Shown in pieces: positions 38,233 through 56,994 of a stretch of DNA of 64,000 bases. The notes under the pieces are model-generated. The model was not told the origin of the DNA. It worked only from the letters and a program-made list of their open reading frames with translations, and searched no databases. Within the stretch, counting starts at the first letter, position 1; each line of letters begins with the position of its first letter. A program made the translations under genes and the position numbers. Location: assembly GCF_055900595.2 (NCBI RefSeq), contig NZ_CM148325.1, one strand, 5' to 3'.

Positions 38233-38359
38233 AGTGGATGCTACAGGTTGTAACAAGTTGCTGTCCAGACGTAGCTCACAAATAGAAATACATCAAGATC
38301 TGGACATCTGATGAGCAATCCCTACAATCGCCGCGTACATTTCATTTTCAGGATACATC

Positions 38360-39460
38360 ATGACCCCCGAACACCTTCCAACAGAACAGTATGAAGCGCA
38401 GTTAGCCGAAAAAGTGGTACGTTTGCAAAGTATGATGGCGCCGTTTTCTGACCTGGTTCCGGAAGTGTTTCGCTCGCCGGTCAGTCATTACCGGATGCGT
38501 GCGGAGTTCCGCATCTGGCACGATGGCGATGACCTGTACCACATCATTTTCGATCAACAAACCAAAAGCCGTATCCGCGTGGATAGCTTCCCCGCCGCCA
38601 GTGAACTTATCAACCAGTTGATGACGGCGATGATTGCGGGTGTGCGTAATAATCCCGTTCTGCGCCACAAGCTATTCCAGATTGATTACCTCACTACGCT
38701 GAGTAATCAGGCGGTGGTTTCCCTGCTGTACCATAAAAAGCTGGATGACGAATGGCGTCAACAGGCGGAAGCTCTGCGCGATGCGTTGCGCGCACAAAAT
38801 TTAAATGTGCATCTGATTGGTCGGGCAACGAAAACCAAAATCGCGCTGGATCAAGATTACATCGACGAACGTCTGCCGGTCGCAGGGAAAGAGATGATCT
38901 ACCGTCAGGTAGAAAACAGCTTTACCCAGCCGAACGCGGCGATGAATATTCAGATGCTGGAATGGGCGCTGGACGTCACCAAAGGCTCAAAAGGCGATTT
39001 ACTGGAGCTGTACTGCGGCAACGGTAACTTCTCATTAGCCCTGGCGCGCAATTTTGATCGGGTATTAGCCACCGAAATCGCCAAGCCGTCGGTCGCTGCC
39101 GCGCAATACAACATTGCCGCTAACCATATTGATAACGTCCAAATTATTCGTATGGCGGCAGAAGAATTTACTCAGGCGATGAATGGTGTGCGCGAGTTTA
39201 ATCGCCTGCAAGGGATCGACTTGAAGAGTTATCAGTGCGAAACCATTTTTGTCGACCCACCGCGCAGCGGTCTGGACAGTGAAACCGAGAAAATGGTGCA
39301 GGCGTATCCACGTATTCTGTATATCTCCTGCAACCCGGAAACATTATGTAAGAATCTGGAAACATTAAGCCAGACGCACAAGGTTGAACGTCTGGCTCTG
39401 TTTGATCAGTTCCCCTATACGCACCATATGGAGTGCGGCGTATTACTGACCGCTAAGTAA
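38360..39460 (+). CDS. trmA: tRNA (uracil54-C5)-methyltransferase TrmA
   Basis: 366-aa [32 protein letters not shown]... Confidence 0.94.
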
Positions 39461-39467
39461 AGCCCAT

Positions 39468-39489
39468 GCCGGATGCGCTAGCATCCGGC
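39468..39489. terminator. Hairpin between convergent trmA and yijD
   Basis: Perfect palindrome GCCGGATGC-GCTA-GCATCCGGC. Confidence 0.6.
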
Positions 39490-39498
39490 ATGAACCGA

Positions 39499-39858
39499 TT
39501 ACTCAGCAACTTCCTGCTTACGGTTACGCATCTTCGCGCCAATCCAGAACACCATAATGACGGACAGTACGGCCGGGAAGAAGTTAGAACCTATATCCGG
39601 ATATTCCGCACGAACCACAGTGCTATACAGCAGAACGCCGAGAATAAAACAGGCAGCTGCCAGACCCGGCAAGCCTACCGGCATAGTGCGATTAAGATAA
39701 CGTTGATGCAGGCAGTAAACCGTCAGCACCAGGGAAATAATCGGGAATACAGAAAATGGCACAATGGAGCTAAACAGCGCTGCGAAAGTACCATTAATCG
39801 ATAAGCCAGCCACCAGCGCCAGCAGCAGCGTACCTCTATCTTGATTTGCTTGTTTCAT
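39499..39858 (-). CDS. yijD: Inner-membrane protein YijD
   Basis: 119-aa hydrophobic ORF; start overlaps fabR stop. Confidence 0.88.
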
Positions 39859-40562
39859 TACTCGTCCTTCACATTTCCCGGAATAATTGCGGTTTTCTCT
39901 TGTTCACGGCGATACCAGTAATAAGCCCCTTTCGAAATCATTCGCAGTTGCAGTACCAGTCGCTCTTCTAATTGCCGACGTTGTTCGACGCCGACGTCCA
40001 ACGCCTCGGCACCCGCACTGAAGACAATCGTCACCATGGCTTCGGCTTGCGCTTCAGTAAACGCACGCGGCATATGGTTTTCGAGTTCCAGATAGTCCGC
40101 AAGTTCCGCAATGAAGTGCTGAATTTCACGCGCAACGGCGGCACGAAACGCAGCGGAGGTGCCGGAGCGTTCCCGCAATAATAACCGGAAGGCGTTAGGA
40201 TTATTACCGATGAACTCCATAAATGTGGAGACCGAGGTGCGGATCACACTCCCGCCTTTGGCGATACGCTGACGCGCCTGGCGCATGAGTTGGCGCAGCA
40301 TTAAACCGCTCTCATCAACCATGGTCAGACCGAGTTCGTCTACGTCGCGAAAATGCCGGTAAAAAGAGGTGGGAGCAATGCCCGCTTCACGCGCCACTTC
40401 ACGCAAACTCAGGCTGGCGAAGCTGCGTTCAGCACTTAATTGGCTAAATGCGGCTTCCACCAACGAACGGCGGGTTTTTTCTTTTTGTTGCGCTCTTACG
40501 CCCATCACGATGTCTGAATCCTTGCCAAAAGTACTGCTGGCACTATACCAGAGAATGAACAT
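39858..40562 (-). CDS. fabR: TetR-family repressor of unsaturated fatty-acid synthesis FabR
   Basis: TetR HTH ([21 protein letters not shown]); start taken at MFILWY... (234 aa), alternative upstream ATG at 40601. Confidence 0.88.
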
Positions 40563-40839
40563 ACTGGATTGCTCCAGTGTTGTGAATGAACCGTAACGCA
40601 ATAAAACATATTTACTGCAATTCTTTGGCTGGTTCTTTTACGAACAACGGAAACCTGCCACTTAAACGGTGAGTACTGGCGATAAAAATCCAATAAAACG
40701 TTCAAGGCAAAAGTAAGAAACAGACAAAGCAAAGGCCGCTCACGATATAGCCAGATAAATGACGGGGATCAATTGGCTTACCCGCGATAAAATGTTACCA
40801 TTCTGTTGCTTTTATGTATAAGAACAGGTAAGCCCTACC

Positions 40840-42240
40840 ATGCCACATTCCTACGATTACGATGCCATAGTAATAGGTTCCGGCCCCGGCGGCGAAGGCG
40901 CTGCAATGGGCCTGGTTAAGCAAGGTGCGCGCGTCGCAGTTATCGAGCGTTATCAAAATGTTGGCGGCGGTTGCACCCACTGGGGCACCATCCCGTCGAA
41001 AGCTCTCCGTCACGCCGTCAGCCGCATTATAGAATTCAATCAAAACCCACTTTACAGCGACCATTCCCGACTGCTCCGCTCTTCTTTTGCCGATATCCTT
41101 AACCATGCCGATAACGTGATTAATCAACAAACGCGCATGCGTCAGGGATTTTACGAACGTAATCACTGTGAAATATTGCAGGGGAACGCTCGCTTTGTTG
41201 ACGAGCATACGTTGGCGCTGGATTGCCCGGACGGCAGCGTCGAAACACTAACTGCTGAAAAATTTGTTATTGCCTGCGGTTCTCGTCCATATCATCCAAC
41301 AGATGTTGATTTCACCCATCCACGCATTTATGACAGCGACTCAATTCTTAGCATGCACCACGAACCGCGCCATGTACTTATTTACGGTGCTGGAGTGATC
41401 GGCTGTGAATATGCGTCGATCTTCCGCGGTATGGATGTAAAAGTGGATCTGATCAACACCCGCGATCGTCTGCTGGCGTTTCTCGATCAAGAGATGTCAG
41501 ATTCTCTCTCCTATCACTTCTGGAACAGTGGCGTAGTGATTCGTCACAACGAAGAGTACGAGAAGATCGAAGGCTGTGACGACGGTGTGATCATGCATCT
41601 GAAGTCGGGTAAAAAACTGAAAGCTGACTGTCTGCTCTATGCCAACGGTCGCACCGGTAATACCGATTCGCTGGCGTTACAGAACATTGGGCTGGAAACT
41701 GACAGTCGCGGACAGCTGAAGGTCAACAGCATGTATCAGACCGCGCAGCCGCACGTTTACGCGGTGGGCGACGTGATTGGTTATCCGAGCCTGGCGTCGG
41801 CAGCCTATGACCAGGGGCGTATTGCCGCACAGGCGCTGGTGAAAGGTGAAGCCACCGCACATCTGATTGAAGATATCCCTACCGGTATTTACACCATCCC
41901 GGAAATCAGCTCTGTGGGCAAAACCGAACAGCAGCTGACCGCGATGAAAGTGCCATATGAAGTGGGCCGCGCCCAGTTCAAACATCTGGCACGCGCACAA
42001 ATCGTCGGCATGAACGTGGGCACGCTGAAAATTTTGTTCCATCGGGAAACAAAAGAGATTCTGGGCATTCACTGCTTTGGCGAGCGCGCTGCCGAAATTA
42101 TTCATATCGGTCAGGCGATTATGGAACAGAAAGGTGGCGGCAACACTATTGAGTACTTCGTCAACACCACCTTTAACTACCCGACGATGGCGGAAGCCTA
42201 TCGGGTAGCCGCGTTAAACGGTTTAAACCGCCTGTTTTAA
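40840..42240 (+). CDS. sthA: Soluble pyridine nucleotide transhydrogenase SthA (UdhA)
   Basis: 466-aa [41 protein letters not shown]... with FAD/NAD Rossmann motifs. Confidence 0.95.
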
Positions 42241-43140
42241 CACTTTATCGAAATGGCCATCCATTCTTGCGCGGATGGCCTCTGCCAGCTGCTCATAGCG
42301 GCTGCGCAGCGGTGAGCCCGGACGATAAACCAGGCCAATAGTGCGGCGTGGTTCCGGCTTAATACACGGCAAATAAACAACCCCATCGCGTTTACGCTCC
42401 GGCGGCACAGCCAGCGCAGGCAGTAAAGTGATCCCGCTACCTGCCGCCACCATGTTGCGCAGAGTTTCCAGGCTGGTCGCGCGGAAGTGTGTATCTTCAT
42501 CCGCCCCGGCTTCAAAGCAGAAACCCATTGCCTGATCGCGCAAACAGTGACCATCTTCCAGCATCAGCAGTTTTTCCCCTGCCAGATCGGCCATTGGTAC
42601 GCATTCGCGGTTCGCCCACGGGTGATCTTCATAGATAGCCAGCAACATTGGCTCATCAAACAACGGCACTTCAATGAATGCTTCGCTCTCTTTCACCAGC
42701 GCGAGGATCACGCAATCGAGTTTGCCGCTGTCCAGTTGCGCCAGTAACTGGTGGGTCTGTGCTTCATGCAGATACATTTCCAGCTTTGGAAAGGTCTGGT
42801 GCAGCATCGGGATAATATGCGGTAACAGGTAAGGCCCAACCGTGGGAATCAAACCAATATGCAGCGGCCCGGACATTGTCTCGCCCTGCTGGCTTGCCAT
42901 CTCTTTAAGGACTTTCACCTCACGCAGCACGGTACGCGCCTGATCCACCAGCAGCATTCCCGCCTGGGTGAATAACACTTTACGGCTGGTCCGCTCCAGC
43001 AACATCACGCCCAGCTCATCTTCCAGCTTACGAATTTGCCCGCTAAGCGTCGGCTGGCTAACGTGGCAGGAATCTGCCGCACGCCGAAAATGACGGTGTT
43101 CAGCCAATGCCACCAGGTACTCAAGATCACGAATATTCAT
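42223..43140 (-). CDS. oxyR: LysR-family oxidative-stress regulator OxyR
   Basis: Start at [44 protein letters not shown] (305 aa); redox Cys pair (HCLRDQ, HFRATS region). Confidence 0.96.
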
Positions 43141-43235: not shown

Positions 43236-43347
43236 GAAACGGAGCGGCACCTCTTTTAACCCTTGAAGTCACTGCCCGTTTCGAGAGTTTCTCAACTCGA
43301 ATAACTAAAGCCAACGTGAACTTTTGCGGATCTCCAGGATCCGCTTT
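43236..43347 (+). ncRNA. oxyS: OxyS small regulatory RNA
   Basis: GAAACGGAGCGGCACCTCTTTTAACCCTTGAAGTCACTGCCCGTTTCGAGAGTTTCTCAACTCGAATAACTAAAGCCAACGTGAACTTTTGCGGATCTCCAGGATCCGCTTTTTTTT, divergent from oxyR and ending in a terminator hairpin plus U-run. Confidence 0.93.
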
Positions 43348-43391
43348 TTTTTATTCTACAGGCCCACAGCAAGAGAGCCTGATAGTAACAG

Positions 43392-44675
43392 TTACTCAAT
43401 CCGATCTTTGACAATAAAGAAGTAACACAGCGCCCCGGTGAACGTCACACAGGCCGCGATAACCAGCGCCAGATTAAACGAGTGCGTGGTATCCACTACC
43501 CAACCGGTTACGATCGGAGCAAAGGAAGCAAAAACAAAACTGCCAAAGTTTTGAATCCCGGCGATGGAAGCCACTTTTGTTTCTGACACCATCACCTGCA
43601 CCAGTCCCCATGCAGATGTTCCCGCGAAATGCACGCAGAACAGCGCCATTGAGATAAACGCTACAGCCTGGGCTGGCGAGGAGGATTGCACGACCAGCAA
43701 CGTGCCTAATGCCGACATCATCAAACCGCAGACAATAGCCGTTTTACGCGTCTTCGCCAGGTCGTAGCCTTTTTTCGCCAGCCGATCGACAACAATACCG
43801 TTAACCCACATCCCGACCGCCGCCGCGAGGAAAGGAATCGCCGCCACCCAACCGGTTTTCGCCAGACTGAAGCCTTGCTCGGCTTGTAAATAACCGGGTA
43901 ACCACGCGATGTAGAGCCAACCGGTATAATTGACGCCAGAGAAACCTAAAATCATCCCCCAGGTTGTCCGATGCTTAAACAGCGCCAGCCACTCGCTAAA
44001 TTGTAATTGTGGACGCGGTTTAACCGGCGCGGAGAGATAGGTCCGTTCTTCGTCGGTCAGGACAAACTGCGCCCGGTTGCGATACCACGCGTACCAACAG
44101 ATCCCAACCAGAATCCCCGCCACGCCGATGATGACGAACATTGCCCGCCAGCCCCATGCCAGCTGCATCAATACAAGAGCAGGAGGCGCAATAGCCTGAC
44201 CGATAACGGTAGATGAGTTAAAAATCCCCAGCGCCGTGCCGCGTTCTTTTTGCGCATACCAGTCGGTGATCGACTTTACTCCCGCAGGCATAAATGGCGC
44301 TTCGCCAATACCCAGACCGATACGCATTAAAATAAAGTGGCTAAAAGAATTAACCATTCCTGTTAATGCCTGCATTAATGACCAGAATATTAAGCCTGCA
44401 CCTAAAACTATTCGTGGGCCAAAGCGGTCTAGCAAAATACCGGAAGGGAGTTGTGAAAAACCATAAGACAGAGAAAATGCAGAAAGCAAAACGCCAAATT
44501 CTGTCGCCGATAATCCTAACTCGCCACGAATCGCTTCGCCTGCCACGCTCAATGACGAACGGTCGAGGAAATTAACGATCCCCGCCATAAATAATAAAAC
44601 CAGCGTTACTGTCTGAATACGACGAATCCGTTGCGGTTTATTACCCGCAACACTGGTTGACACATCAACGTCCAT
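43392..44675 (-). CDS. MFS transporter, anion:cation symporter (ACS) family; predicted sugar-acid (aldonate/hexuronate-type) permease
   Basis: 427-aa ORF with 12 predicted TM segments and MFS motifs (DRFGPR; DgoT/ExuT-like); accessory relative to K-12 gene order. Confidence 0.8.
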   Translation of the reverse strand: MDVDVSTSVAGNKPQRIRRIQTVTLVLLFMAGIVNFLDRSSLSVAGEAIRGELGLSATEFGVLLSAFSLSYGFSQLPSGILLDRFGPRIVLGAGLIFWSLMQALTGMVNSFSHFILMRIGLGIGEAPFMPAGVKSITDWYAQKERGTALGIFNSSTVIGQAIAPPALVLMQLAWGWRAMFVIIGVAGILVGICWYAWYRNRAQFVLTDEERTYLSAPVKPRPQLQFSEWLALFKHRTTWGMILGFSGVNYTGWLYIAWLPGYLQAEQGFSLAKTGWVAAIPFLAAAVGMWVNGIVVDRLAKKGYDLAKTRKTAIVCGLMMSALGTLLVVQSSSPAQAVAFISMALFCVHFAGTSAWGLVQVMVSETKVASIAGIQNFGSFVFASFAPIVTGWVVDTTHSFNLALVIAACVTFTGALCYFFIVKDRIE

Positions 44676-44741
44676 TTTTAGCTCCTTGAGCGGAATTAAT
44701 CGATTTGCTGACTATTCAGAAAATAATTAAGCGAACCGTTA

Positions 44742-45956
44742 TTACCAGTTCCACAATGTGCCATCTTCCAGTCGTGCGACGGGGAGATACGCCGGGTCAT
44801 ACGGATATTTCGCCGCCAGTTTCTCATCGAAAGAAATACCCAGCCCCGGTTCATCGCCTGGGTGCATATAACCTTCATCGAAGCGCCAGCTGTGCGGGAA
44901 GACTTCAAGCATTTGTTCGGAATAGCCCATGTACTCCTGAACACCAAAGTTTGGCACCCAGAGGTCAAAATGCAGCGCCGCCGCATGACAAACAGGCGAT
45001 AAATCTGAAGGGCCATGCGAACCGGTACGTACCTGATAAAGCGATGCAAAATCGGCAATCCGTCGCATCCCGGTAATGCCGCCTGCATGGGTAATCGTCG
45101 TGCGAATATAGTCAATCAGCTGCTCTTCGATTAACTGCTTGCAGTCCCAGATACTGTTAAACACTTCACCGACCGCAATCGGCGTCACAGTATGCTGGCG
45201 AATCAGACGAAAACATTCCTGGTTCTCGGCAGGCGTCGGATCTTCCATCCAGAACAGGCGGTAATCCTCTATGCTCTTCCCAAAGCGTGCCGCTTCGATA
45301 GGAGTCAGGCGATGGTGCATGTCATGCAACAGATGTTCGTTAAAACCGAACTTATTACGCACCGCTTCAAATAACTTCGGTGTAAAATCGAGATACTTTT
45401 CTGAAGACCACAACTGCTCTTCCGGCCACAGGCCTTTGGTTGCCGGTTCATACGCCAGTCCTTTGCCCTTCGCCAGGCCATAAGTGGTTTGCATACCCGG
45501 TACACCGCACTGCACACGAATCGCCTTAAAGCCCATCTGCTGGTGCTTTGCATAGTCTTCAAGGACTTCATCAATCGTGCGCCCGGTGGTGTGGCAATAA
45601 ACCATCACGCCTTCACGAGAAGCCCCACCAAGCAGTTGATACAATGGCATATTTGCCGCTTTGGCTTTGATATCCCACAACGCCATATCAATGGCAGAAA
45701 TGGCCGACATCGTGACGGGGCCACGTCGCCAGTAAGCACCTTTATAAAAGAATTGCCAGATATCTTCGATACGACTGGCATCGCGGCCAATTAATTGTGG
45801 ACAAAGATGATCTTTCAGATAAGAAGCGACCGACAATTCGCGACCATTTAATGTGGCATCTCCCAATCCACAAAGTCCGCTTGCAGTGGTTATTTTAAGC
45901 GTAACGAAATTACGTCCTGGGCAAGTAACAAAAACATCTGCAGCAATAATTTTCAT
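44742..45956 (-). CDS. Enolase-superfamily dehydratase, mannonate dehydratase (ManD)/RspA-like subgroup
   Basis: 404 aa from [24 protein letters not shown]...; AGGAG RBS 9 nt upstream; ORF track begins 20 codons earlier. Confidence 0.8.
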
Positions 45957-46346
45957 TATTGCAATCTCCTGTGTTGTAAATAGACGCTTCAAACTTAATT
46001 TTACGCCTACTACCATACAAGAGAGAAAGAGCGATTATTCAACCGTGATCACATTAAAAATAAAAATTTCCACCGAGGAACAAAAATATCCTCAAATCTC
46101 ACCTACACTATTAACTACCATCGTTAAAACAACGTGTTAAATAATCACATAACAAATTCCTTTAAGGAAGGGAGTTATAACAACAACAAAAGATAATCAT
46201 ATTTTACTTAATTCAATACGTATCGATAGGTTTATTTAAAAAGGATTTTTCGGAATGAGAGATGAAAAGAAGATACACAAGCAGGAAGAAATACGATTAA
46301 TATTAGTTGCGGTAAGGGTAGCCGTTCCTCCCTTCCGCAACCCATT

Positions 46347-46443
46347 AACCGTTGAAGTCACAGACTATTTCAGGCATTTCTCAACTCAAAATAACGACAG
46401 CCAACGTGAACTTTATGGCTCTCCAGGATCTGCTTTGTTTTCC
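46347..46443 (+). repeat. Diverged copy of the oxyS 3' portion (oxyS-like remnant), direct orientation
   Basis: ACCGTTGAAGTCAC...TTTCTCAACTC...AGCCAACGTGAACTTT...CTCCAGGATCTGCTTTGTTTT aligns with oxyS 43258-43347 at roughly 80% identity by eye; terminator stem not conserved. Confidence 0.7.
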
Positions 46444-46444
46444 A

Positions 46445-47923
46445 TCAAACAACGGAGCTCAGCGCACTGGCTACCTGTTTAAAGCGAGCAAACCGTCGCC
46501 TGAGCATGTGTGCTTTTTCTACATTCGGTTCAAGACGAATCACGTTGAGCTGCGTAGCCTTCATGGCCTGTTTGAATCCAGAATAAGCCCCTCCTCCTAC
46601 TGCCGCACACATTGCAGCCGCTCTACAACCTGACTGTTCAATATCGACAATTTCAAGAGGCATTTTGCTGGCATCACAAAACATCTGCATCCAGATTCTG
46701 GAATGCGTTGGCCCGCCAGAGAAACGAATCGTTTGCAATGACTTATCAATCTCAATAAGACGGTCCTGATGCAACAAATGAGAAAAGACAATGCCCTGAT
46801 AAATAGCGTACACCAAATCTTCTCTTTTATGATGCCCACACAGCCCCAAAAATCCCCCGCTTAATGCCTCATGGTAATTCGAGCCAAACAACCACGGGAA
46901 AAAGAGAATATCATTCTGCTTCTCATACCCTCGTTCCACCCACTCATTAATCACCCGATAACTGTCAGGAAGATCCGGTAAAAATTGCTGCAAGAACCAT
47001 GTCAAATTACTGGCTGATGTAGGGCTTCCCTCATGGGCGAAAAATGTACCTGGAATGCTAAATTTCCCCCATACATAGGGATAATCAGAAGGAATAATGC
47101 GATCAAAGATTCGCGTTGCAATTGACCAGGTGCCAGCAACCGCACTTAACGTTGTACTGTCATAGATGCCAGAAGTGAGCGCCGCACCAACGACATCAAA
47201 AACACCACCAAAAACAGGCGTTCCGGCGAGAAGCCCACATTGGCTGGCTGCTTCAGATGTCACAAACCCAGCTAAATCAGCGGAGCCAATAATATCGGGA
47301 ACCTTACCCGCAACTTCCTTAATCTCAAATAGGCGAAAAAGTTCAGCATCATAAGCACTGGTATATTGATTATAAAAATTACTGCCTGAAATATTGGTTT
47401 CTTCACAAGCCAGTTTGCCAGTAAGCCGTGAACGTATGTAATCATGAACCATCAAAATGGTTCCGATGCGGCCATAATTGTCAGTCTCATGTTTTTTCAA
47501 CCAATGCAATAGTGCTACAGGGTGCGATGGCCAGAGCTGTTGCAGACTACGGTGATAACTTTCGCGGTCAATTCCTTGTTCTTTCCAGCTTGCAACCAGT
47601 TGTTGTGCGCGAGAATCAGAGGAAACAATGCCGTGTCGTAAGGGCTTACCTTGCCGGTCGAGCAGGTACAAACCTTTACCATGAGCAGAAAAACTGATGC
47701 CATCAATCTGACTCGCAGTAATATTGTTATCTGACATCGACAGTGAAATGACCTGGCACGTTACCTTCCATAACGCCTCCATGTCGCGTTCGCAAAAACC
47801 AGGACATGGGCTTAACAGAGGTAACGCCTGCGAAGAGACACCTATTTCACGTCCTTCTGCCGTATAAATTCCCGCTTTGGTTTCTGTACCACCTAAATCG
47901 ACACCAATAAAATACCGCTCCAT
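46445..47923 (-). CDS. FGGY-family carbohydrate kinase, L-xylulose/3-keto-L-gulonate kinase (LyxK)-like
   Basis: 492-aa ORF; N-terminal FIGVDLGGTETKAGIY and C-terminal FSGGPTHSRIWMQM actin-fold motifs. Confidence 0.8.
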   Translation of the reverse strand: MERYFIGVDLGGTETKAGIYTAEGREIGVSSQALPLLSPCPGFCERDMEALWKVTCQVISLSMSDNNITASQIDGISFSAHGKGLYLLDRQGKPLRHGIVSSDSRAQQLVASWKEQGIDRESYHRSLQQLWPSHPVALLHWLKKHETDNYGRIGTILMVHDYIRSRLTGKLACEETNISGSNFYNQYTSAYDAELFRLFEIKEVAGKVPDIIGSADLAGFVTSEAASQCGLLAGTPVFGGVFDVVGAALTSGIYDSTTLSAVAGTWSIATRIFDRIIPSDYPYVWGKFSIPGTFFAHEGSPTSASNLTWFLQQFLPDLPDSYRVINEWVERGYEKQNDILFFPWLFGSNYHEALSGGFLGLCGHHKREDLVYAIYQGIVFSHLLHQDRLIEIDKSLQTIRFSGGPTHSRIWMQMFCDASKMPLEIVDIEQSGCRAAAMCAAVGGGAYSGFKQAMKATQLNVIRLEPNVEKAHMLRRRFARFKQVASALSSVV

Positions 47924-47939
47924 GATCCCTCCTTAGTTT

Positions 47940-48803
47940 CTAAATATTATCCCAGCCGGCAAAGCGCATTTTCTCTTCAATCCATTGACGTGCATGAATA
48001 ATTTCTAATAGAGGTTCCGTCGCTTTTTCTGTCCACATTTCTATCAGAAACGTTCCGCGATAATTAAGATTACGCAGGATCTTAAATAATTTAATAAAAT
48101 CTACACACCCTTCACCAAAAGGAACGTCACGAAATTGCCCTGGAGAATCAGGCGTTACTGGGTACGTATCTTTAAGATGGATTGCGGCAATTCGATCAAT
48201 CCCCTTTACCAGCTCACTTTCCAGTTCATTACCCCATGCGGTCAGATTGCCAACATCCGGATAAACGGTAAACCAAGGGGAATTAATTTTTGTATCCAGG
48301 ACTTTCCATTTACTAATAGAATTAATAAATGGCGTATCCATGATCTCTACAGCACACATAACTTGTGCCGCTGCGGCCTGTTCAGCTGTCCAGGCCATCG
48401 CATCTTCAAACCAGGCGATAGTTTCTTCATTCTGCGGCTCATAATAAACGTCATAGCCTGCCAGTTGGATTGTTCGAATCCCCAAATCCTGCGCCAGGCG
48501 TAACGCCTTCAACATAATCGTACGTGCCTGCTGACGAGTATCTCTATCATGGCTACCAAATGGAAAACGCCGGTGAGCAGACAGGCACATTGTCGGAATA
48601 CGGATCCCCGTTTGCTGAATGGCGCTAATAAGCTCCATACGCTCGGTGAGCGACCAGTCCAGGCGGGCGAGTCGTTCATCATTCTCATCTACCGACATCT
48701 CAACAAAATCAAAACCGCAAGATTTAGCCAGGGCTAGTTTCTCTACCCAACTGGTATTCCTGGGTAGCGCTTTTTCATAAATACCTAACGGGTGGCGTCG
48801 CAT
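47940..48803 (-). CDS. Sugar-phosphate 3-epimerase, UlaE/SgbU-like (L-ribulose-5-P / L-xylulose-5-P 3-epimerase family, xylose-isomerase-like TIM barrel)
   Basis: 287-aa ORF with LGIYEKALP...GFDFVEMSVDE...LAGYDVYYE...GEG.VDF motifs; start overlaps upstream permease stop. Confidence 0.8.
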   Translation of the reverse strand: MRRHPLGIYEKALPRNTSWVEKLALAKSCGFDFVEMSVDENDERLARLDWSLTERMELISAIQQTGIRIPTMCLSAHRRFPFGSHDRDTRQQARTIMLKALRLAQDLGIRTIQLAGYDVYYEPQNEETIAWFEDAMAWTAEQAAAAQVMCAVEIMDTPFINSISKWKVLDTKINSPWFTVYPDVGNLTAWGNELESELVKGIDRIAAIHLKDTYPVTPDSPGQFRDVPFGEGCVDFIKLFKILRNLNYRGTFLIEMWTEKATEPLLEIIHARQWIEEKMRFAGWDNI

Positions 48804-49849
48804 TATTTTCCCTCACGAGTGATCAATTGTTGTTGAAAGATTTTCCGGCTCTTATTCATGTCACGCTGCAACTGCCATTTTTGTTTGATGAATTTAAATG
48901 CCAGTGCGGCGATCAATGTGATCCCCCATACCGCCAGATTGAAATGCAAACTAAGTCCCAACAGACTAAGGCCGGTAGCAATAACCTGAAGCACAAGTAA
49001 GGCACAAAAAACATGACTGACTTTACCCGCCCCACCGAATGGATCTGTGCCTCCCAATACAATTGCAAGAACCGTCAAGAGCAGATAGGAATCGCCATAG
49101 CCCATACGCGCCGAATTAAATCGCGCGAGCATAATAAGACCTGCTAATACACACAACATGCTGGATATAGCATATATAGCAATTAATACGCGGTCGGTGC
49201 GAATACCGCTAAACCATGTGGCGTTAATATTACTGCCACACATATAAATCGTTTTTCCCGTACGGGTTTTGCCGAGGAACAGAGCTAAAGCAACGGTGGT
49301 GACGATAAAAATTATCATCGGTACTGGGATCCCCATGATAACTTCAGACCCAATACTGCGGACTACTGGTGGCATACCACTTAAAGCTGCCCCCTTAGTC
49401 AGGTAAATACCGATACCACTAATAATGGTCATGCTACCCAATGTGACCAAAATAGGGTGAGCGCCTATATGAGAAATAATTGACCCAGTAATAGCTCCAA
49501 TGATGATGGCAATAAGCATCGCCCCGACAATAGCCAGGAAGAGCCAAAACAACTGACTACCTGTAGATGCATCTGCGGGTACATATTGAATCAACAGCCA
49601 GGCCATAAACAGGCTGGTCAGATTCGCAGTACCGATGATTGCCAGATTGAGCCCCCCGCTCAACATGGGTATAAACATCGCAAACGTGAGCAACCCAAGC
49701 TCTGGCAATTGAAATGCAATGCTCAGAAAAGTATTGCCGGTGAAAAAACGCCCCGGCATTACCAGACTAAATAACACCACCGCAATAAAACATATTGATA
49801 ATAAGCCTGAACTGGTACCATCTAGTGGAAAAAATATCCGCTTGTTCAT
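48803..49849 (-). CDS. Sugar ABC transporter permease (CUT2 / RbsC-like)
   Basis: Polytopic membrane ORF; start taken at MNKRIFFPLDG with GGAGG RBS 6 nt upstream (ORF track starts 10 codons earlier). Confidence 0.8.
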   Translation of the reverse strand: MNKRIFFPLDGTSSGLLSICFIAVVLFSLVMPGRFFTGNTFLSIAFQLPELGLLTFAMFIPMLSGGLNLAIIGTANLTSLFMAWLLIQYVPADASTGSQLFWLFLAIVGAMLIAIIIGAITGSIISHIGAHPILVTLGSMTIISGIGIYLTKGAALSGMPPVVRSIGSEVIMGIPVPMIIFIVTTVALALFLGKTRTGKTIYMCGSNINATWFSGIRTDRVLIAIYAISSMLCVLAGLIMLARFNSARMGYGDSYLLLTVLAIVLGGTDPFGGAGKVSHVFCALLVLQVIATGLSLLGLSLHFNLAVWGITLIAALAFKFIKQKWQLQRDMNKSRKIFQQQLITREGK

Positions 49850-49862
49850 TTCGATCCTCCCG

Positions 49863-50855
49863 TTAGACGAAACCAACATCAGTTTCTTTACGTTTTTTGT
49901 AATGGGTCACACAAATCGCCGAGACAATAACCACTCCAATAACGATATTGACGAAATAACTCGAGATGCCAATCAAATTAAGGCCGTTTTTAAGAATACC
50001 GATAAGAAATACGCCCATAAGCGTACCAATGACCGTACCACGTCCGCCTGATAAACTGGCACCGCCCAATACCGCTGCAGCCAGCACATCCAACTCTCCG
50101 CCAACCAATGCATTCGGCACAACTTCACTCATACGGTAAGCTTGCAGCATTCCACCAATTGCTGCAGCGGCACCAAGATAACCATAAGCAAACAGATAAA
50201 TTAGCGACACCCGAATCCCAATACGTCTTGCTGATTCGGTATTCCCTCCCACGGCATAAAGCTGACGCCCAATATGGGTTTTGTTCATTATCATCCACGT
50301 CAGAAATGCCATTCCCAGCATAACCACTAACGGTAATCCGATCTGGTAATCTTCTCCGCCAAATTCAAAACTCAGGAAAGAACGCTGCGTAATCCACCAA
50401 TCCGGTAAATCGTAAATACTGTGGCCATTAGTCAACCACATCAACATACCGAACAGTAGCGACTGCATACTAATCGTAATGATGATGGAAACGACATTAA
50501 GGTAATAAATAAGAATAGCGTTTATCAAACCAAAAATGATGCCAAGAAAAACAGCAAACACCAGACAGAAAAATGGATTTGATAGCGTTTCATTAAGCAG
50601 TAACGACGCCACAACATATTGCACAACCGAAGCTACTGCTGCAAAAGAGATATCAATTCCGCCAGTAACCAATACGACAAATAATCCGAGGGCGAAAATA
50701 CCCGTTACGGCATAACTTTCCGAGAGATCGAGCAAGTTCTGTATTGATAAAAACTCATCGCTCATGATGGAAAAAAATACCAGCATGAGAACAATGACCC
50801 ATCCTAACCAAGCTTCGACTGAACGAGGAAACCGCAGCCGCATAAAGCTAACCAT
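49863..50855 (-). CDS. Sugar ABC transporter permease (CUT2 / RbsC-like)
   Basis: 330-aa polytopic membrane ORF; start overlaps the ATPase gene stop by 8 nt. Confidence 0.8.
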   Translation of the reverse strand: MVSFMRLRFPRSVEAWLGWVIVLMLVFFSIMSDEFLSIQNLLDLSESYAVTGIFALGLFVVLVTGGIDISFAAVASVVQYVVASLLLNETLSNPFFCLVFAVFLGIIFGLINAILIYYLNVVSIIITISMQSLLFGMLMWLTNGHSIYDLPDWWITQRSFLSFEFGGEDYQIGLPLVVMLGMAFLTWMIMNKTHIGRQLYAVGGNTESARRIGIRVSLIYLFAYGYLGAAAAIGGMLQAYRMSEVVPNALVGGELDVLAAAVLGGASLSGGRGTVIGTLMGVFLIGILKNGLNLIGISSYFVNIVIGVVIVSAICVTHYKKRKETDVGFV

Positions 50856-52365
50856 TAATCACCTCCGCCAACTGCTGCTCGGTATAATTCGAAGGCAACA
50901 GCTCATTAATAATCTTTCCGCGCTTCATATGAAAAATACGATCGCAGTTATAATAAGCTTCTGGTGCTTCATCAGTAATTAATATCACTGAAATACCCAC
51001 ACCTGAAAGCCGATGAATAAGCTGGTAAATACTATCTTTTGCGCCAATATCTACACCTACCGTTGGCGCATCCAGAATTAAAACCTTAGGTCGTGTTAAA
51101 ATCCATTTAGCCAGGACAACCTTTTGTTGATTGCCGCCAGATAGCGTTGAAAGTGGATTATTTGGATCGGTGACTTTAATATCCAAATCCTGGATCCACT
51201 CCTTGACTAAGGTTTCTTTTCGATTTTCATCAATAAACCCCGATGCCGTCTTTAAACGATCCAGAATCGAGAGCACCATATTATCGCTGATAGATTGGGG
51301 TAATACGGCCCCCAGTGTCAGGCGATCTTCTGAAACATATGCTATTCCCAGTTTTACCGCATGCGTGTTGTCTTTAATTGTAACGGGCTTACCTTCCAGA
51401 TAAATATCACCACTATCTGGTCGAGTAATACCGAAAAGACTCAATGCTAATTCAGTTCTCCCCGCACCAAGTAAACCACACAATCCCAGAACCTCGCCCT
51501 GGTGTAGTTTTAGAGAAACATCTTCAAATTGCCCTTTTCTGCATAATTTGTTTAGTTCAAGGACTACTTTGCCTTCAACGCTATTTGGTAGCTTCTTCTG
51601 GTGGACTATAGTTTTTCCGGTCATTAACTCAGTAATATCGCCCGGAGAAAGTTGATTGGCAGCCCACGTTCCAATTATCTCTCCATCACGGATGACCGTA
51701 ATCCGATCTGAAATTTCCTTAACTTCATCAAGGCGGTGGCTAACAAAAACTACGGTAATATTTTTATCGCGTAAGTAATTCACTGTGCGTAGTAATTGAT
51801 TAACTTCTGTACGCGTCAATGATGCCGTTGGCTCGTCCATGATGACTAAGCGGGCATCGGCAATCAGAGCCCGGCAAATCGCGACCTGTTGGCGTTGTGC
51901 AATCGGCAAATGTTGTACTAACGCATCAGGATCGAGATTGAATTGCAGCTCCTGAATTATTTTCTGCGATACATCTCGAAGTTGTTTTTTTCTGTGCAGC
52001 CCTAAATATCCCTTCAGGTTGTATTCAAAAGCGATATTTTCAGCAACAGAAAGATTTGGGAATAAAGAAAGATCCTGATATATCACCTGAATACCCAGTT
52101 CCCGAGCTTTATCAGGAGAAAGACGAGTCCAGGACTTACCATCTATAATAATTTCACTTCCCGAATCAGGGACATAAACACCACACAGCGTTTTGATCAG
52201 AGTACTTTTACCACACCCATTCGCACCAGCAAGACAATGAACCTCACCTTTATTTAAGGTAAGATTGATATTCTTTAGAGCCCTATGGCCACCGAAACTT
52301 TTCGTTAGTGACCTTAGCGTCACTAATGGTTGCTCCGCATTCTTCTCTATAATATGAGGCATCAT
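50848..52365 (-). CDS. Sugar ABC transporter ATP-binding protein with two fused nucleotide-binding domains (RbsA/MglA-like)
   Basis: 505-aa ORF; Walker A GANGCGKST in the N-terminal domain, ABC signature LSGGNQQKVVLAKW in the second. Confidence 0.85.
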   Translation of the reverse strand: MMPHIIEKNAEQPLVTLRSLTKSFGGHRALKNINLTLNKGEVHCLAGANGCGKSTLIKTLCGVYVPDSGSEIIIDGKSWTRLSPDKARELGIQVIYQDLSLFPNLSVAENIAFEYNLKGYLGLHRKKQLRDVSQKIIQELQFNLDPDALVQHLPIAQRQQVAICRALIADARLVIMDEPTASLTRTEVNQLLRTVNYLRDKNITVVFVSHRLDEVKEISDRITVIRDGEIIGTWAANQLSPGDITELMTGKTIVHQKKLPNSVEGKVVLELNKLCRKGQFEDVSLKLHQGEVLGLCGLLGAGRTELALSLFGITRPDSGDIYLEGKPVTIKDNTHAVKLGIAYVSEDRLTLGAVLPQSISDNMVLSILDRLKTASGFIDENRKETLVKEWIQDLDIKVTDPNNPLSTLSGGNQQKVVLAKWILTRPKVLILDAPTVGVDIGAKDSIYQLIHRLSGVGISVILITDEAPEAYYNCDRIFHMKRGKIINELLPSNYTEQQLAEVING

Positions 52366-52392
52366 AATATTCCTGAATACGACTAAAGGAAT

Positions 52393-52412
52393 TCCGGGTC
52401 AAATTTGACCCG
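52393..52412. promoter_or_regulatory. Perfect 20-bp palindrome (intercistronic stem-loop) between binding-protein and ATPase genes
   Basis: CCGGGTCAAATTTGACCCGG within the 63-nt gap. Confidence 0.5.
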
Positions 52413-52428
52413 GTGATTTACAGTAAAA

Positions 52429-53433
52429 TTACAAGCCTAGCTTCACTAAACGTCGTGTATTTTCAAGATCGAGCTTTTCTGGATTATCACTATAAATAGT
52501 GTTGTTATTAACCTTGATCTCGCCCATATCACCGATTTTTACACCGTCTTTAATAGGTTCACCGTTCATCATTGCCGTCGCAACCTGGACAAAAACCTTA
52601 CCCGCAATCATAGGGTTTGAAATATATCCCCCATCAATGGCACCTTTTTCGAGTAGCTTAATTCCCTGACCTGGAGTGAAGGTTCCAAAAACGCAAATTG
52701 CATCATTTTTCTTCCGCTTATCAATAGCACGCCCCGCACCAATTGGTCCTTGTGAACCAAATGACATAATGCCTTTAAGATCTTTATATTTAGACATTAA
52801 ATCGTTCGTCGTGCGCATTGAATCATCCACCGACTCAGCAACACCAAAACGATCTTCAACCAACGTCATATTTGGATAATGTTCTTTTTGATAGGCAATC
52901 GCGGCATTGGCCCAGTCATTTACCAAAGGCACAGTCAGACTGCCGACAAACATGGCGTATTTACCTTCTTCGCCCATACACTTCGCCATATCTTTCATAT
53001 GATTGGCACCCATTGTCTGGGTATTTAACAACTCAAAATCCCAATCTGCATTTTTTTGATCTGGTGATTCGTGGGTAATAACTTTAATACCGGCTTCTTG
53101 TGCACGCTTAAGTACAGGTTCAAGAACCTTTGCATCGTTAGGAACAACACCAATAACATCCACTTTTCGTGCAATTAAATCTTCAATCGCCCGAACCTGT
53201 TCAGCTGGATCTGCCGTTGTAGGGCCGACCTGCCATGCATCAACCCCCAATAGTTTTCCTTCATTTTTAATGCCTTGTTCCATCACATTAAACCAGGGAA
53301 TTCCACCGACTTTTACTACTACCCCCATCGTAAAAGGTTTATTCGCTTTTTGTGATGTTACAGTCTGATCAGCCCATGCAGCAGTGGAAGATAATACGGT
53401 AGCAATAAGGCAGGGTAAGATTAATTTTTTCAT
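52429..53433 (-). CDS. Periplasmic sugar-binding protein (type I PBP, RbsB-like)
   Basis: 334-aa ORF with signal peptide MKKLILPCLIATVLSSTAAWA; first gene of the ABC operon. Confidence 0.85.
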   Translation of the reverse strand: MKKLILPCLIATVLSSTAAWADQTVTSQKANKPFTMGVVVKVGGIPWFNVMEQGIKNEGKLLGVDAWQVGPTTADPAEQVRAIEDLIARKVDVIGVVPNDAKVLEPVLKRAQEAGIKVITHESPDQKNADWDFELLNTQTMGANHMKDMAKCMGEEGKYAMFVGSLTVPLVNDWANAAIAYQKEHYPNMTLVEDRFGVAESVDDSMRTTNDLMSKYKDLKGIMSFGSQGPIGAGRAIDKRKKNDAICVFGTFTPGQGIKLLEKGAIDGGYISNPMIAGKVFVQVATAMMNGEPIKDGVKIGDMGEIKVNNNTIYSDNPEKLDLENTRRLVKLGL

Positions 53434-53461
53434 CGTAATTTCCTTAAGAAATAGTTCAGGT

Positions 53462-53493
53462 GTCAGGAAAACTCGATATAATATCGACCTGAC
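53462..53493. promoter_or_regulatory. Nested inverted repeats in the binding-protein promoter region, candidate operator for the adjacent DeoR regulator
   Basis: GTCAGG-AAAAC-TCGATATAATATCGA-C-CTGAC, 36 nt upstream of the binding-protein start. Confidence 0.35.
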
Positions 53494-53555
53494 TATTTAT
53501 ATAATTTATAATCCCTTAGGCATTGATTAATAATTTAGACAATAAATAACGCCTA

Positions 53556-54365
53556 TTATTTATCAACCTCCACAATGTTTAATTGTGGAAATTGTGTTCG
53601 ATACCGAGTATCTGTACAAACATTAGTCACCAGAATATCGATTTCATCCAGCGTGCATATTTTACTAAATGCATACTGTTCAAACTTAGTGGAGTCGACC
53701 AGCAATATTTTTTGTCCTGACACCTGAAGCATCACCTGTTTAAGTCTGGCATTAATTTCACTGCCATCGCGGACACCATTCCCCAGATTCAACCCCTGGC
53801 ATGAAAAGAAAAAACTGTTGATTTGAAAATTTCGGATCGCACTCTCTGCAACCGGGCCATGAAAATCATCATGTCGCTCAGAATACTCACCACCGATACC
53901 AATAATTCGAACTCGATCACGGCAAGCTAACGCCTGAATTATCCGTAATGAATTTGTAACTACGGTAACATCTATATCGGGAATTTGACGAGCTAAAAAC
54001 CAACAAGTACTACTGTTATCCATTAAAATACAATCACCAGGGTGAATAAATTGCAATGCGGCCTTCGCAATTCTGGCTTTTATATCAGGATTTTCTTCAG
54101 TCCGTTTACGGAATGATTCCGCACGATCGATACTATTATCTTGCCACGCATTATCGGCGAGCATAACCGGAGCGCTATCAGATGAATCCAGAGCGACCGC
54201 GCCACCAAAGCTACGGATTAACTTTTTGTTGCGCTCCAGTACCGTTAAATCCCGACGAATTGTCTCAGGAGACGCTTTAAATAATCGTGATAATTCAGTT
54301 ACCCGCACAGCACCTTGTTTTTGTACATGTGCGCATATCATTTTATGGCGCTCTGCCTGCAACAT
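53556..54365 (-). CDS. DeoR-family transcriptional regulator
   Basis: 269-aa ORF with N-terminal HTH (VRVTELSRLFKASPETIRRDLTVLE) and C-terminal DeoR sugar-binding domain. Confidence 0.85.
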   Translation of the reverse strand: MLQAERHKMICAHVQKQGAVRVTELSRLFKASPETIRRDLTVLERNKKLIRSFGGAVALDSSDSAPVMLADNAWQDNSIDRAESFRKRTEENPDIKARIAKAALQFIHPGDCILMDNSSTCWFLARQIPDIDVTVVTNSLRIIQALACRDRVRIIGIGGEYSERHDDFHGPVAESAIRNFQINSFFFSCQGLNLGNGVRDGSEINARLKQVMLQVSGQKILLVDSTKFEQYAFSKICTLDEIDILVTNVCTDTRYRTQFPQLNIVEVDK

Positions 54366-54744
54366 AGTATCGGTCCGTTATTATCAAATTAGCATGCTTA
54401 TATAATTAACTGTTCCCTCATAAAATAAAGTGATAGGAATCAAGATTCATTTTATAATTATAATCGCAAACAGGAATGGTGATCTTTATCACAAATTAAA
54501 TTGAGAACACTCTACTATTTGACATTACTTTGAGATATCGGTCACTAAATAAGTCTTATTCTGCCATCTAACGAAAAATTTAAATACAAAAACAAAAATA
54601 ATCGGGCATAGCAATCGCTTCCATTCATGACCGAATACGCCCGAATAAAACCGTTTATACCCACTTATCCTCTTTCGTTGCCTTCTTACATGCCTTGAAT
54701 ATTTTACATTTCTTATATTCAGCGTAATTTAGGAAACATAATTT

Positions 54745-54816
54745 ATGAGCAAAAAAAGCCCAAACTCAAAAGTTAAAGTTTATTTATATAATACATACAG
54801 ATTATCGTGGAGTTAA
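54745..54816 (+). CDS. Candidate 23-codon upstream ORF ([23 protein letters not shown])
   Basis: AGGAAA 8 nt before the ATG; TAA stop ends 2 nt before the 4-epimerase ATG; no homology claimed. Confidence 0.25.
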
Positions 54817-54818
54817 AA

Positions 54819-55511
54819 ATGGATATGCTAAAGGAAAAAGTTCTTGCTGCGAATTTATCATTACCCCTTCATCAGTTAGTGACGTTTACCTGGGGAAATG
54901 TTAGTGGTGTTGATCGCGAAAAAGGTGTCATGGTTATTAAACCTTCTGGGGTCGAATACAGCCAAATGGGCATTGCAGATATGGTGGTAGTGGATTTACA
55001 AAGTGGTGAAGTTATTGATGGACACAGGAAACCCTCTTCAGACACCGATACTCATCTGGCGCTATACCGTGCTTTCCCGGATATTGGTGGTATCGTTCAT
55101 ACCCATTCCCGACACGCCACAATATGGGCTCAGGCCGGAAAAGATCTCACGGCCTTTGGGACAACCCACGCTGATTATTTCTACGGCACTATCCCCTGTA
55201 CACGCCCCATGAAGGATGACGAAATTAATGGACAATATGAATATGAAACGGGGCGAGTGATTATTGAAACGTTCAGACAACGAGAAATATCTCCCGCTGA
55301 CATTCCGGCTGTTTTAGTAAACAGTCATGGCCCCTTTGCCTGGGGAACTGATCCCGCGAACGCCGTGCATAACGCCGTTGTACTTGAAGAAATTGCCTAT
55401 ATGAATCTCTTTACACAACAACTACAGCCCCATCTTACGGCTATTCAACAGCCTCTACTGGATAAGCATTTTTTACGCAAGCATGGTGCCAATGCTTATT
55501 ACGGGCAGTAA
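54819..55511 (+). CDS. Class II aldolase-family L-ribulose-5-phosphate 4-epimerase (AraD/SgbE/UlaF-like)
   Basis: 230 aa from [34 protein letters not shown]...; GGAG RBS 6 nt upstream; HTHS and HADYFYG motifs; ORF track uses a GTG at 54807. Confidence 0.85.
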
Positions 55512-55560
55512 CCCTCTTAGCATGGCCTGGCGTTTTGCCAAGCCATAAATCGCCTAAGAC

Positions 55561-56934
55561 TTACTCCAACCGCGCCTGCGCAAAAGCAATCGCCTGCGCC
55601 ACCTGCTGCGGTGAGACGCCGCCTTTTGCCGCACGCTTGTCGAGGCACGATTGCAGCGACAGAATCGGATAGACATCTTCGCCAATCACCTGACTGAATT
55701 TCTGCAACTCACTGAGCGGCAGATCTTCCAGCGGTTTGCCCTGACGAATGGCTTCCACCACCGCTTCACCAACAATATGGTGCGCCTCGCGGAACGGCAC
55801 ACCTTTCGCCACCAGGTAATCCGCCAGTTCAGTGGCGTTCGCATACCCCTGCTGCGCCGCTTCCTGGCAACGTGGGCGTTTCACCTGAATGCCGTCCAGC
55901 ACCAGCGCCGCCATATGCAGGCAGTCCAGCCAGGTATCGAGCGCGTCGAACAGACCTTCTTTGTCTTCCTGCATATCTTTGTTATAAGCCAGCGGCAAAC
56001 CTTTCAGCGTCATCATCATGCCAGTCAACGCGCCCTGAACACGACCGCATTTACCGCGAATCAGCTCCAGCGCATCCGGGTTTTTCTTCTGCGGCATTAA
56101 TGATGAACCGGAAGTCACGCGATCAGAAAGCTCCACAAAACCCGCTTCGCCGGTGTTAAAGAAAATCAGATCTTCGGCAAAACGCGACAAATGCACCATA
56201 CCGATAGCGGCGGCAGAAAGCAGTTCCAGCACGTGGTCGCGGTCAGAAACGCTGTCGAGACTGTTACGGGTCGCCGAAGCAAAGCCCAGCCAGCCTGCTA
56301 ACTGTTCACGGTCGATTTCATAGGCCGTTCCCGCTAGTGCGCCACAGCCTAACGGGCTGACATCCAGACGCTTAAGCGCATCCTGCAAACGGCTTTCATC
56401 ACGCGCCAGCATCTCAACATAGGCCAGGCACCAGTGCGCGAACGTCACCGGTTGGGCGCGTTGCAGGTGAGTGTAACCTGGCATTACCGCGTCCTGATTG
56501 TTTTGTGCGGTTTCCACCAGCGCCGATTGCAGCTGTCGGTTAGCCGTCAGCAACTCGCTAACGGTATCCTTGCACCACAGTTTCAGATCGGTCGCCACCT
56601 GATCATTACGGCTACGCCCGGTGTGCAGTTTTTTGCCTAACTGGCCCACTTTGTCGATCAGTTTGCCTTCCACCCAGCTATGGATATCTTCGGCGTCGCT
56701 TTCAAGAATTTGTTGTGGCCTGGCGCGAACATCTTCCAGCAGCACATTGAGCGCCTCTTCCAGTTGCACCTGTTCTTCTGCGGTTAACACGCCTACCGTT
56801 ACCAGCGCTTTGGACCAGGCCACAGAGCCAACAATATCCTGCTCCGCCAGACGGTAATCAAAGCGCAGTGAGTCGTTGAATTGTTTAAACCGTTGATCTG
56901 CTGCCTGGGTAAAACGCCCGCCCCAAAGTGCCAT
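55561..56934 (-). CDS. argH: Argininosuccinate lyase
   Basis: 457-aa [47 protein letters not shown]... Confidence 0.96.
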
Positions 56935-56994
56935 AACTCTGTTTCCTTATTTTGAAATTCAATGCCGGAAAGCTACATCTCCGGCCAACAAAAC

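Follow-up and report, generated by a model that had tools for sequence, protein, structure and literature searches.

The oxyS-argH interval of an Escherichia coli chromosome probably comprises two nested accessory modules, one of them a putative ketopentose cassette

Between the small RNA (sRNA) gene oxyS and argH, the Escherichia coli chromosome analysed here carries ~12.2 kb of accessory DNA. The window, by which we mean the whole 64,000-nucleotide stretch of contig NZ_CM148325.1, is E. coli and is 100% identical across this region to NZ_CP098223.1 (strain Z0117EC0005); oxyR sits to the left of oxyS. In a BLAST-type comparison with the window, homology to a K-12-type genome ends at 43,352 and restarts at 55,560/55,561, the accessory block occupying 43,353-55,560, and in the K-12-type genome the convergent argH stop lies ~55 bp after oxyS. 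A preliminary description, made from the letters of the window alone, had placed a 12.2 kb block at this position, and the comparison shows that the block is real and correctly delimited. The K-12 order that it gave, with oxyR and oxyS followed by a convergent argH, was also confirmed, the empty junction being present in 3,553 of the 5,426 complete E. coli genomes examined (65.5%), which makes the block accessory by comparison with K-12 and with 65% of E. coli. Outside the block, essentially every position of the window can be aligned to K-12; no other sizeable accessory segment is therefore present, as had been proposed. The core DNA of the window (1-64000) is 2-5% diverged from K-12 throughout.

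Ten intact open reading frames (ORFs) lie within the block, the same ten as in the RefSeq annotation of NZ_CP098223.1, and the NCBIfam matches of all ten are to metabolic, transport or regulator families, which supports the carbohydrate-related content suggested earlier. No mobility gene (integrase or transposase) was detected among the ten ORFs with NCBIfam, RefSeq annotates no mobile element there, and no tRNA was found in 42-58 kb; a gene set of ten ORFs without integrase, insertion sequence (IS) or tRNA, as first described, is thus confirmed by NCBIfam, the Rfam/tRNA scan and the RefSeq annotation. We divide the block into module A (43,353 to ~46,249), which encodes a major facilitator superfamily (MFS) transporter and the dehydratase ManD, and module B (~46,250-55,560), with eight genes. 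On the minus strand module B encodes, in this order, a DeoR-type regulator, a binding protein, an ATPase, two permeases, a 3-epimerase and a kinase, with the 4-epimerase gene divergent from them. A second, degenerate copy of oxyS lies between the two modules (Table 1).

Table 1. Features of the oxyS-argH interval and its borders, in window coordinates. N96 is the closest relative that lacks module B; ABC, ATP-binding cassette.
Feature	Coordinates	Strand	Basis
Functional OxyS sRNA gene, left edge of the accessory region	43236..43345	+	Rfam RF00035, 139.5 bits vs gathering score 75
MFS transporter, anion:cation symporter / D-galactonate-transporter type	43392..44675	-	NCBIfam TIGR00893 best match, 275 bits, under cut-off 395
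ManD, enolase-superfamily D-mannonate dehydratase, RspA paralogue	44742..45956	-	NCBIfam equivalog NF043051, 731.5 bits vs cut-off 550
Left crossover relative to N96	45986..46071	.	Mismatches sparse to 45,985, dense from 46,072; alignment lost at 46,249
Relic (pseudo) oxyS, left edge of module B	46312..46441	+	Same orientation as functional oxyS; between manD and the kinase stop
FGGY-family kinase, LyxK-like (predicted L-xylulokinase)	46445..47923	-	42% to K-12 LyxK, full length, E=2e-144
L-ribulose-5-phosphate 3-epimerase, SgbU/UlaE type	47940..48803	-	NCBIfam NF009689, 475 bits vs cut-off 200; 71% to K-12 SgbU
ABC transporter permease 2	48803..49849	-	Monosaccharide ABC permease NCBIfam families, all below cut-offs; RefSeq annotation
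ABC transporter permease 1	49863..50855	-	NCBIfam RbsC/AraH-like, below cut-offs; RefSeq annotation
ABC transporter ATPase, two nucleotide-binding domains	50848..52365	-	NCBIfam XylG/AraG/RbsA-like, 452 bits, below cut-offs
Periplasmic substrate-binding protein, AauA family	52429..53433	-	E=5e-84 to PDB 9I1M (AauA), 1e-84 to 3D02; 49% identity
DeoR/GlpR-family transcription regulator	53556..54365	-	NCBIfam FucR/SrlR/AgaR-like, below cut-offs; RefSeq annotation
Divergent control region, GC 30%	54366..54818	.	Between deoR and araD-type genes; conserved blocks in seven-genus alignment
L-ribulose-5-phosphate 4-epimerase, AraD/SgbE type, divergent	54819..55511	+	NCBIfam NF009002, 433.7 bits vs cut-off 386; 72% to K-12 SgbE
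argH	55,561-56,934	-	Right edge of the accessory block
The 1.1 kb of argH nearest the island, imported together with module B	55561..56660	-	31 mismatches to N96 (2.8%) vs 8 in the next 2,140 bp (0.37%)

We think it likely that the interval consists of two nested accessory modules of different age, later joined and spread by recombination, and that module B is a ketopentose cassette. The distribution of the genes among the complete E. coli genomes shows three states of the locus. Besides the empty junction, MFS and manD at ≥95% identity occur in ~1,868 genomes (~34%, 10-gene carriers included), ~1,720 of which (32% of all genomes) do not have module B, and all ten genes occur in 146 genomes (2.7%), where they are invariably chromosomal and single-copy. 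The 10-gene allele comes in only two classes, one with 9 genomes at least 99% identical to the window and the other with 137 at ~98.4%.

The composition of the block is divided in the same place. GC content by windows is ~50% over 43.4-45.5 kb and 37-46% over ~45.5-55.0 kb; the AT-richness noticed by eye at 48.8-54.8 kb is therefore real, and its extent is wider than first described. GC content at third codon positions (GC3) is 51-55% for MFS and manD (54.7% for the MFS gene), whereas the eight genes to their right have 34-46%; the background of the window is 57.5 +/- 7.2%. Likewise, relative synonymous codon usage correlates with the background at 0.54-0.71 for MFS and manD and at -0.07 to 0.43 for module B (background mean 0.70). 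Module A, host-like in composition, is a long-standing polymorphism of E. coli, and module B is a self-contained, horizontally acquired, foreign-looking catabolic cassette. Neither is a classical genomic island, since there is no mobility gene and no tRNA site with flanking direct repeats, and the atypical composition expected of such an island is found in module B alone.

The boundary between the modules is marked by the second oxyS copy, which shares ~80% identity with oxyS over 46,345-46,449 (BLAST). The Rfam OxyS model aligns to it at 46,312-46,434 along model positions 1-110, with 30.1 bits (gathering score 75, E=3.5e-4) and many broken or non-canonical pairs. Its terminator stem is broken, its predicted fold reaches -18.7 vs -32.9 kcal/mol, and there is little recognisable oxyS promoter or OxyR-site sequence upstream of it. 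Moreover, the copies of the two E. coli lineages differ at 8 of 130 nt, which is a neutral-like rate. The sequence at 46,312-46,441 is a decayed relic and not a member of OxyS. The functional gene and the relic, ~3 kb apart, are the only direct repeats of the region, and they bracket module A rather than the whole island.

How module B reached the window lineage can be read from N96, the closest island-less relative, which matches the window at 99.5-99.9% identity across most of the 64 kb and has the two-gene state. In N96 the place of window positions 46,250-55,560 is taken by a 190-bp repetitive extragenic palindromic (REP)/hairpin segment. The density of mismatches in argH falls past 56,660, which puts the right crossover at 56,623-56,967, inside argH, and since the left crossover lies in the manD upstream region, module B enters genomes that already carry module A. 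The preliminary description had suggested homologous replacement through flanking core genes; the recombination tract relative to N96 agrees with this, except that the left crossover falls upstream of manD and not in a core gene, and that the recipients already possessed module A. When the window is compared with a carrier that one record labels ST38, synonymous divergence (dS) is 0.016-0.065 for module B, 0.09-0.105 for module A and 0.08-0.19 for oxyR, sthA, argH and argB. Module B having diverged less than its flanks, the cassette is younger than the split of its carrier lineages, and the 10-gene allele moves among E. coli lineages by ordinary homologous recombination via the manD upstream region and argH. 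Two further observations concern the surroundings: the window and N96 show other patches at 95-98.8% identity, especially at 3001-4000, 7001-11000 and 37001-43000, a mosaic of other recombination tracts, and the argH-ppc flank allele is present at ≥99% identity in only 16 of the 5,426 genomes.

The three-state distribution contradicts a 10-gene island gained in a single event, which is how the block had been presented initially. Such an event would account for the presence of MFS and manD in every genome that has the eight right-hand genes (146/146), and for an imported tract that starts just upstream of manD in the window lineage. However, MFS and manD stand alone in ~1,720 genomes, module A has host-like GC3 and codon usage and flank-like synonymous divergence, it is shared by the window and the island-less N96 at 99.4-99.6% identity, and the relic oxyS parts the two modules. 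With locus states, composition and relic all dividing the block, we regard acquisition in one step as extremely unlikely.

Outside E. coli, module B was sought in 100,044 species-representative genomes, and its synteny was read from the 21 loci whose data were complete. All eight genes, in an unchanged order, were present in Citrobacter amalonaticus, two Citrobacter species, Atlantibacter, Serratia, Erwinia, Pantoea, Yersinia (including Y. pestis) and Providencia, the full synteny being kept in 21/21 loci. In C. amalonaticus, the two Citrobacter species and Atlantibacter the cassette occupies the same site, as argH-[8 genes]-oxyR, the locus being identified by Rfam OxyS and by ArgH at 92-96%. 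Four of these loci were scanned with Rfam: three, all from Citrobacter, have a genuine OxyS directly next to the kinase gene, and the Atlantibacter locus had no OxyS match at the gathering score. In Yersinia, Providencia and Serratia the cassette is at sites other than oxyS-argH. Seven of the module B proteins are 81-95% identical to the Citrobacter/Atlantibacter versions, and in distance trees the E. coli cassette comes out as sister to these versions, on a long branch.

We infer from the relic, the crossovers and these relatives the order in which the modules came together, and the probable source of module B. Module B would first have adjoined oxyS directly, as in the C. amalonaticus and Atlantibacter arrangement. 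A donor segment of this Citrobacter/Atlantibacter arrangement, cut near oxyS +1, would then have joined the manD-upstream region of an E. coli locus already holding module A, by a join that would be homologous on the argH side only and illegitimate on the other. A promoterless, decaying oxyS copy would thereby be left at the junction of the modules, and the 10-gene allele would later have spread by homologous recombination. Two results weigh against this scheme. No donor with an intermediate kinase allele (99%-70%) was found in 5.8 billion proteins or in the 100,044 species representatives, which means that the immediate donor is unsampled, and the ancestry of the relic, E. coli-like or Citrobacter-like, is not assignable, as it is too decayed and MAFFT misaligns its terminator.

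The shared site and gene order in C. amalonaticus, the two Citrobacter species and Atlantibacter, together with the sister position of the E. coli cassette in the distance trees, would also be expected if the cassette had been present in the ancestor that Escherichia, Citrobacter and Atlantibacter share and had been lost by most E. coli, with the 146 genomes as vertical survivors. We consider this improbable. Elsewhere the GC3 of the cassette follows that of the host, and it is far under that of the adjacent argH only in E. coli (34-46% vs 61%) and partly in Citrobacter sp. MGH106. The flanks show 2-5 times more synonymous divergence than the cassette when the two E. coli lineages are compared, just two allele classes exist in 146 of 5,426 genomes, and no other Escherichia species representative was matched in the 100,044-genome scan. 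Moreover, comparison with a cassette-free relative at 99.5-99.9% identity reveals a discrete recombination tract in the window, so that breakpoints at the cassette edges have already been observed for one lineage.

Delivery by a plasmid, followed by integration through transposition or IS-mediated recombination, deserves attention as well, since the whole cassette is found on eleven plasmids of Citrobacter, Enterobacter and Klebsiella. In the one plasmid inspected, the conjugative IncFIC plasmid pRHBSTW-00120_2 of Citrobacter freundii, it lies at 6850-16064 between the arsRDABC operon and IS1. The plasmid allele is, however, of the Pantoea/Erwinia type, with ~70% nucleotide identity to the E. 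coli cassette, while the E. coli allele is of the Citrobacter/Atlantibacter type. No IS, transposase or inverted-repeat scar is seen at either E. coli border, none of the 5,426 complete E. coli genomes has a plasmid copy, and the relic oxyS points to a source on a chromosome, next to oxyS. A plasmid route into E. coli is therefore very hard to credit, and a chromosomal donor of the Citrobacter/Atlantibacter arrangement remains our preferred source.

Some of the loci in other species deviate in detail. In Y. pestis NCTC5923 (4494-5357) the binding-protein and ATPase genes are ~860 bp apart, vs ~65-150 bp in other loci, and one Y. pestis kinase entry spans only 71% of the query, which suggests insertion into or decay of the cassette in this species. 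In C. amalonaticus AUH_CA_2023_1 (4300-11500) tblastn finds the binding-protein gene in two segments and gives no full-length match for the kinase and 3-epimerase genes; these split genes could reflect pseudogenisation or assembly indel errors.

Turning to what module B encodes, the ratio of nonsynonymous to synonymous divergence (dN/dS) of its genes between the two E. coli allele classes is 0.05-0.43, which indicates purifying selection. No decarboxylase, dehydrogenase or isomerase was found in the block with NCBIfam or in tblastn maps of the 21 orthologous loci. An Lsr/autoinducer-2 system was considered and rejected, with 103 bits for LsrB (cut-off 384), 138 bits for LsrK (cut-off 528) and no LsrF or LsrG homologue. 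The ascorbate/2,3-diketo-L-gulonate pathways (yiaK-S, ula) were rejected too, as neither the block nor the 21 orthologous loci contain an SgbH/UlaD decarboxylase or a dehydrogenase. Module B shares the three enzyme families of the LyxK-SgbU-SgbE branch of K-12 yiaK-S (42%, 71% and 72% identity), but, unlike yiaK-S, it lacks the YiaK dehydrogenase, the SgbH/UlaD decarboxylase and the YiaMNO tripartite ATP-independent periplasmic (TRAP) transporter, uses an ABC importer, and has a DeoR regulator instead of the IclR-type YiaJ. Without dehydrogenase, decarboxylase or YiaMNO, module B is not a diketogulonate or ascorbate pathway.

LyxK, SgbU and SgbE form an established route from L-xylulose through L-xylulose-5-phosphate and L-ribulose-5-phosphate to D-xylulose-5-phosphate; D-ribulose-5-phosphate requires neither epimerase, and L-ribulose-5-phosphate only the 4-epimerase. 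Since the route that uses all three enzymes and no others starts at L-xylulose, this sugar is the best single guess for the substrate of module B, and judging from the predicted enzymes we rate its chances as about even. L-ribulose could enter the same route. D-ribulose and L-xylulose differ at C4 as their sole differing centre. The binding protein aligns without gaps to AauA at 49% identity and keeps five of its six ligand contacts (Lys37, Trp43, Glu118, Glu196 and Ser223), with Val171 in place of His167, and the resulting K-W-E-V-E-S signature does not vary among 21 orthologues, which represent six genera. AauA is the binding protein of the Aau transporter of enterohaemorrhagic E. coli (EHEC), and has been shown to bind D-ribulose at ~2 micromolar and to co-crystallise with it, its His167 bonding the C2 and C4 hydroxyls of the sugar (PMC12307932).

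In the mechanism that we propose, an AauA-family periplasmic binding protein and its ABC importer would bring in a ketopentose, the LyxK-like kinase would phosphorylate it, and the SgbU-type 3-epimerase and AraD/SgbE-type 4-epimerase would yield D-xylulose-5-phosphate for the pentose-phosphate pathway, a DeoR-family repressor and CRP governing the divergent promoters. More tentatively, and with somewhat less confidence than in the substrate itself, we suggest that module B may be a dedicated high-affinity system for the uptake and catabolism of L-xylulose, a third, stereochemically distinct member of the Aau/Rbl family in which the His-to-Val switch at the C4-hydroxyl contact would set specificity. 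On this reading a host-derived pentose, one from the glucuronate-xylulose pathway, would become available to the organisms with the cassette: a clonal group of E. coli, one strain of which bears the label ST38, together with Yersinia, Providencia and others.

Several findings count against the L-xylulose assignment. The nearest characterised binding protein, AauA, takes D-ribulose and not L-xylulose; the kinase falls below every NCBIfam equivalog cut-off, with only 42% identity to LyxK; it is 69-70% identical to its Citrobacter/Atlantibacter orthologues when its seven neighbours are at 81-95%, an unusually long branch; and a search of the full-text literature returned no description of the 8-gene cassette or of an oxyS-argH island. 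An alternative reading, which we judge rather unlikely, is that the cassette imports D-ribulose, L-ribulose or ketopentoses broadly, the epimerases being accessory or serving only an L-ribulose branch. The micromolar binding of D-ribulose by AauA and the five contacts retained are what it would predict, FGGY kinases can be promiscuous (AraB, one of them, is so with D-ribulose), and L-ribulose-5-phosphate is an intermediate of the same route. Yet the SgbU-type 3-epimerase, superfluous for ribulose-5-phosphate, is kept in every orthologous locus, all the orthologues have Val for His at the contact with the C2 and C4 hydroxyls, and the closest characterised relative of the kinase is LyxK rather than the D-ribulokinase family TIGR01315, to which it scores 94 bits (cut-off 409). 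L-xylulose thus stays our first choice.

The kinase stands apart from its neighbours in other respects. Its orthologues are named L-xylulokinase or 3-keto-L-gulonate kinase in some sources, and among 5.8 billion proteins its 90% cluster is confined to E. coli, with the next matches at no more than 70%. The drop in identity is abrupt at the boundary between kinase and 3-epimerase genes, and dN/dS of the kinase within E. coli is only 0.18. Its long branch could reflect altered specificity, accelerated evolution or partly relaxed constraint. A separate acquisition of the gene, making the cassette a mosaic, is unsupported, as the distance tree keeps the kinase sister to the Citrobacter/Atlantibacter versions and only its branch is longer.

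Among known systems, the closest in design are the ketopentose ABC transporters Aau, of EHEC O-island 17, and Rbl, of Citrobacter rodentium (Cottam et al. 2024, PMC11127945; 2025, PMC12307932). Like them, module B has a four-component monosaccharide ABC importer, and like Rbl it links the transporter to an FGGY kinase. It differs from both in its chromosomal site, in having a LyxK-like kinase and not one of the D-ribulokinase family, in its two L-pentulose-phosphate epimerases and in the Val at the position of AauA His167. Moreover, module B has a DeoR regulator of its own, whereas Aau depends on AraC and Rbl is without a regulator.

The control region between the divergent genes contains a CRP-like palindrome at 54,478-54,493 with one mismatch to the consensus and tandem ATTCGG half-sites at 54,600-54,646, which are candidate operator sites; both elements are conserved across seven genera, and a further conserved block lies at 54,716-54,730. 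The CRP-like site and the half-sites fit DeoR repression plus catabolite control. A generic promoter and terminator scan was uninformative, giving fewer promoter-like matches than in shuffled sequence. Just past the binding-protein gene, at 52394-52413, there is a GC-rich hairpin without a T-tail, CCGGGTCAAATTTGACCCGG, which may act as an intra-operon stabiliser or attenuator that lifts expression of the binding protein relative to the membrane components.

In module A, to judge by the two families, a hexonate such as D-mannonate would be imported by the MFS transporter and dehydrated by ManD to 2-keto-3-deoxygluconate, which would then follow the core KdgK/Eda route. The manD product scores above the ManD equivalog cut-off and, in the printed alignment, matches RspA (PDB 4IL2) at ~90% of amino acids, placing it close to the rspAB/ManD subgroup; manD and the rspA located elsewhere in E. 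coli share 81% DNA identity. Unlike rspA, it is partnered by an MFS transporter and not by the RspB dehydrogenase, occupies another locus and is present in only ~34% of E. coli. The possibility that this ManD is itself the crystallised CFT073 protein 4IL2 was rejected, that protein being the ~90% identical RspA paralogue.

Taken as a locus, oxyS-argH is a worked example of how accessory DNA builds up and spreads without an integrase, with three alleles, mapped crossovers and a dead duplicate of an sRNA gene. It resembles other integrase-less accessory segments swapped by flanking recombination in its absence of mobility genes, its alternative alleles at one site (empty, two-gene and 10-gene) and its crossovers in flanking homologous DNA. 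It differs from them in that the original join, which, as we infer, was apparently homologous on one side only, has left a trace in the form of a decaying second copy of the sRNA gene at the border. Current understanding is not overturned by this: the locus is of an ordinary accessory metabolic kind, and the cassette is an uncharacterised member of known families.

For E. coli, module B is confined to two lineages, one of them large and clonal, which makes it a possible lineage marker and a testable niche determinant, and it lies beside module A, which would serve a related sugar acid. If the substrate prediction is true, module B would be an uncharacterised nutrient-scavenging system from a transporter family recently shown to confer a gut fitness advantage on EHEC and Citrobacter rodentium.

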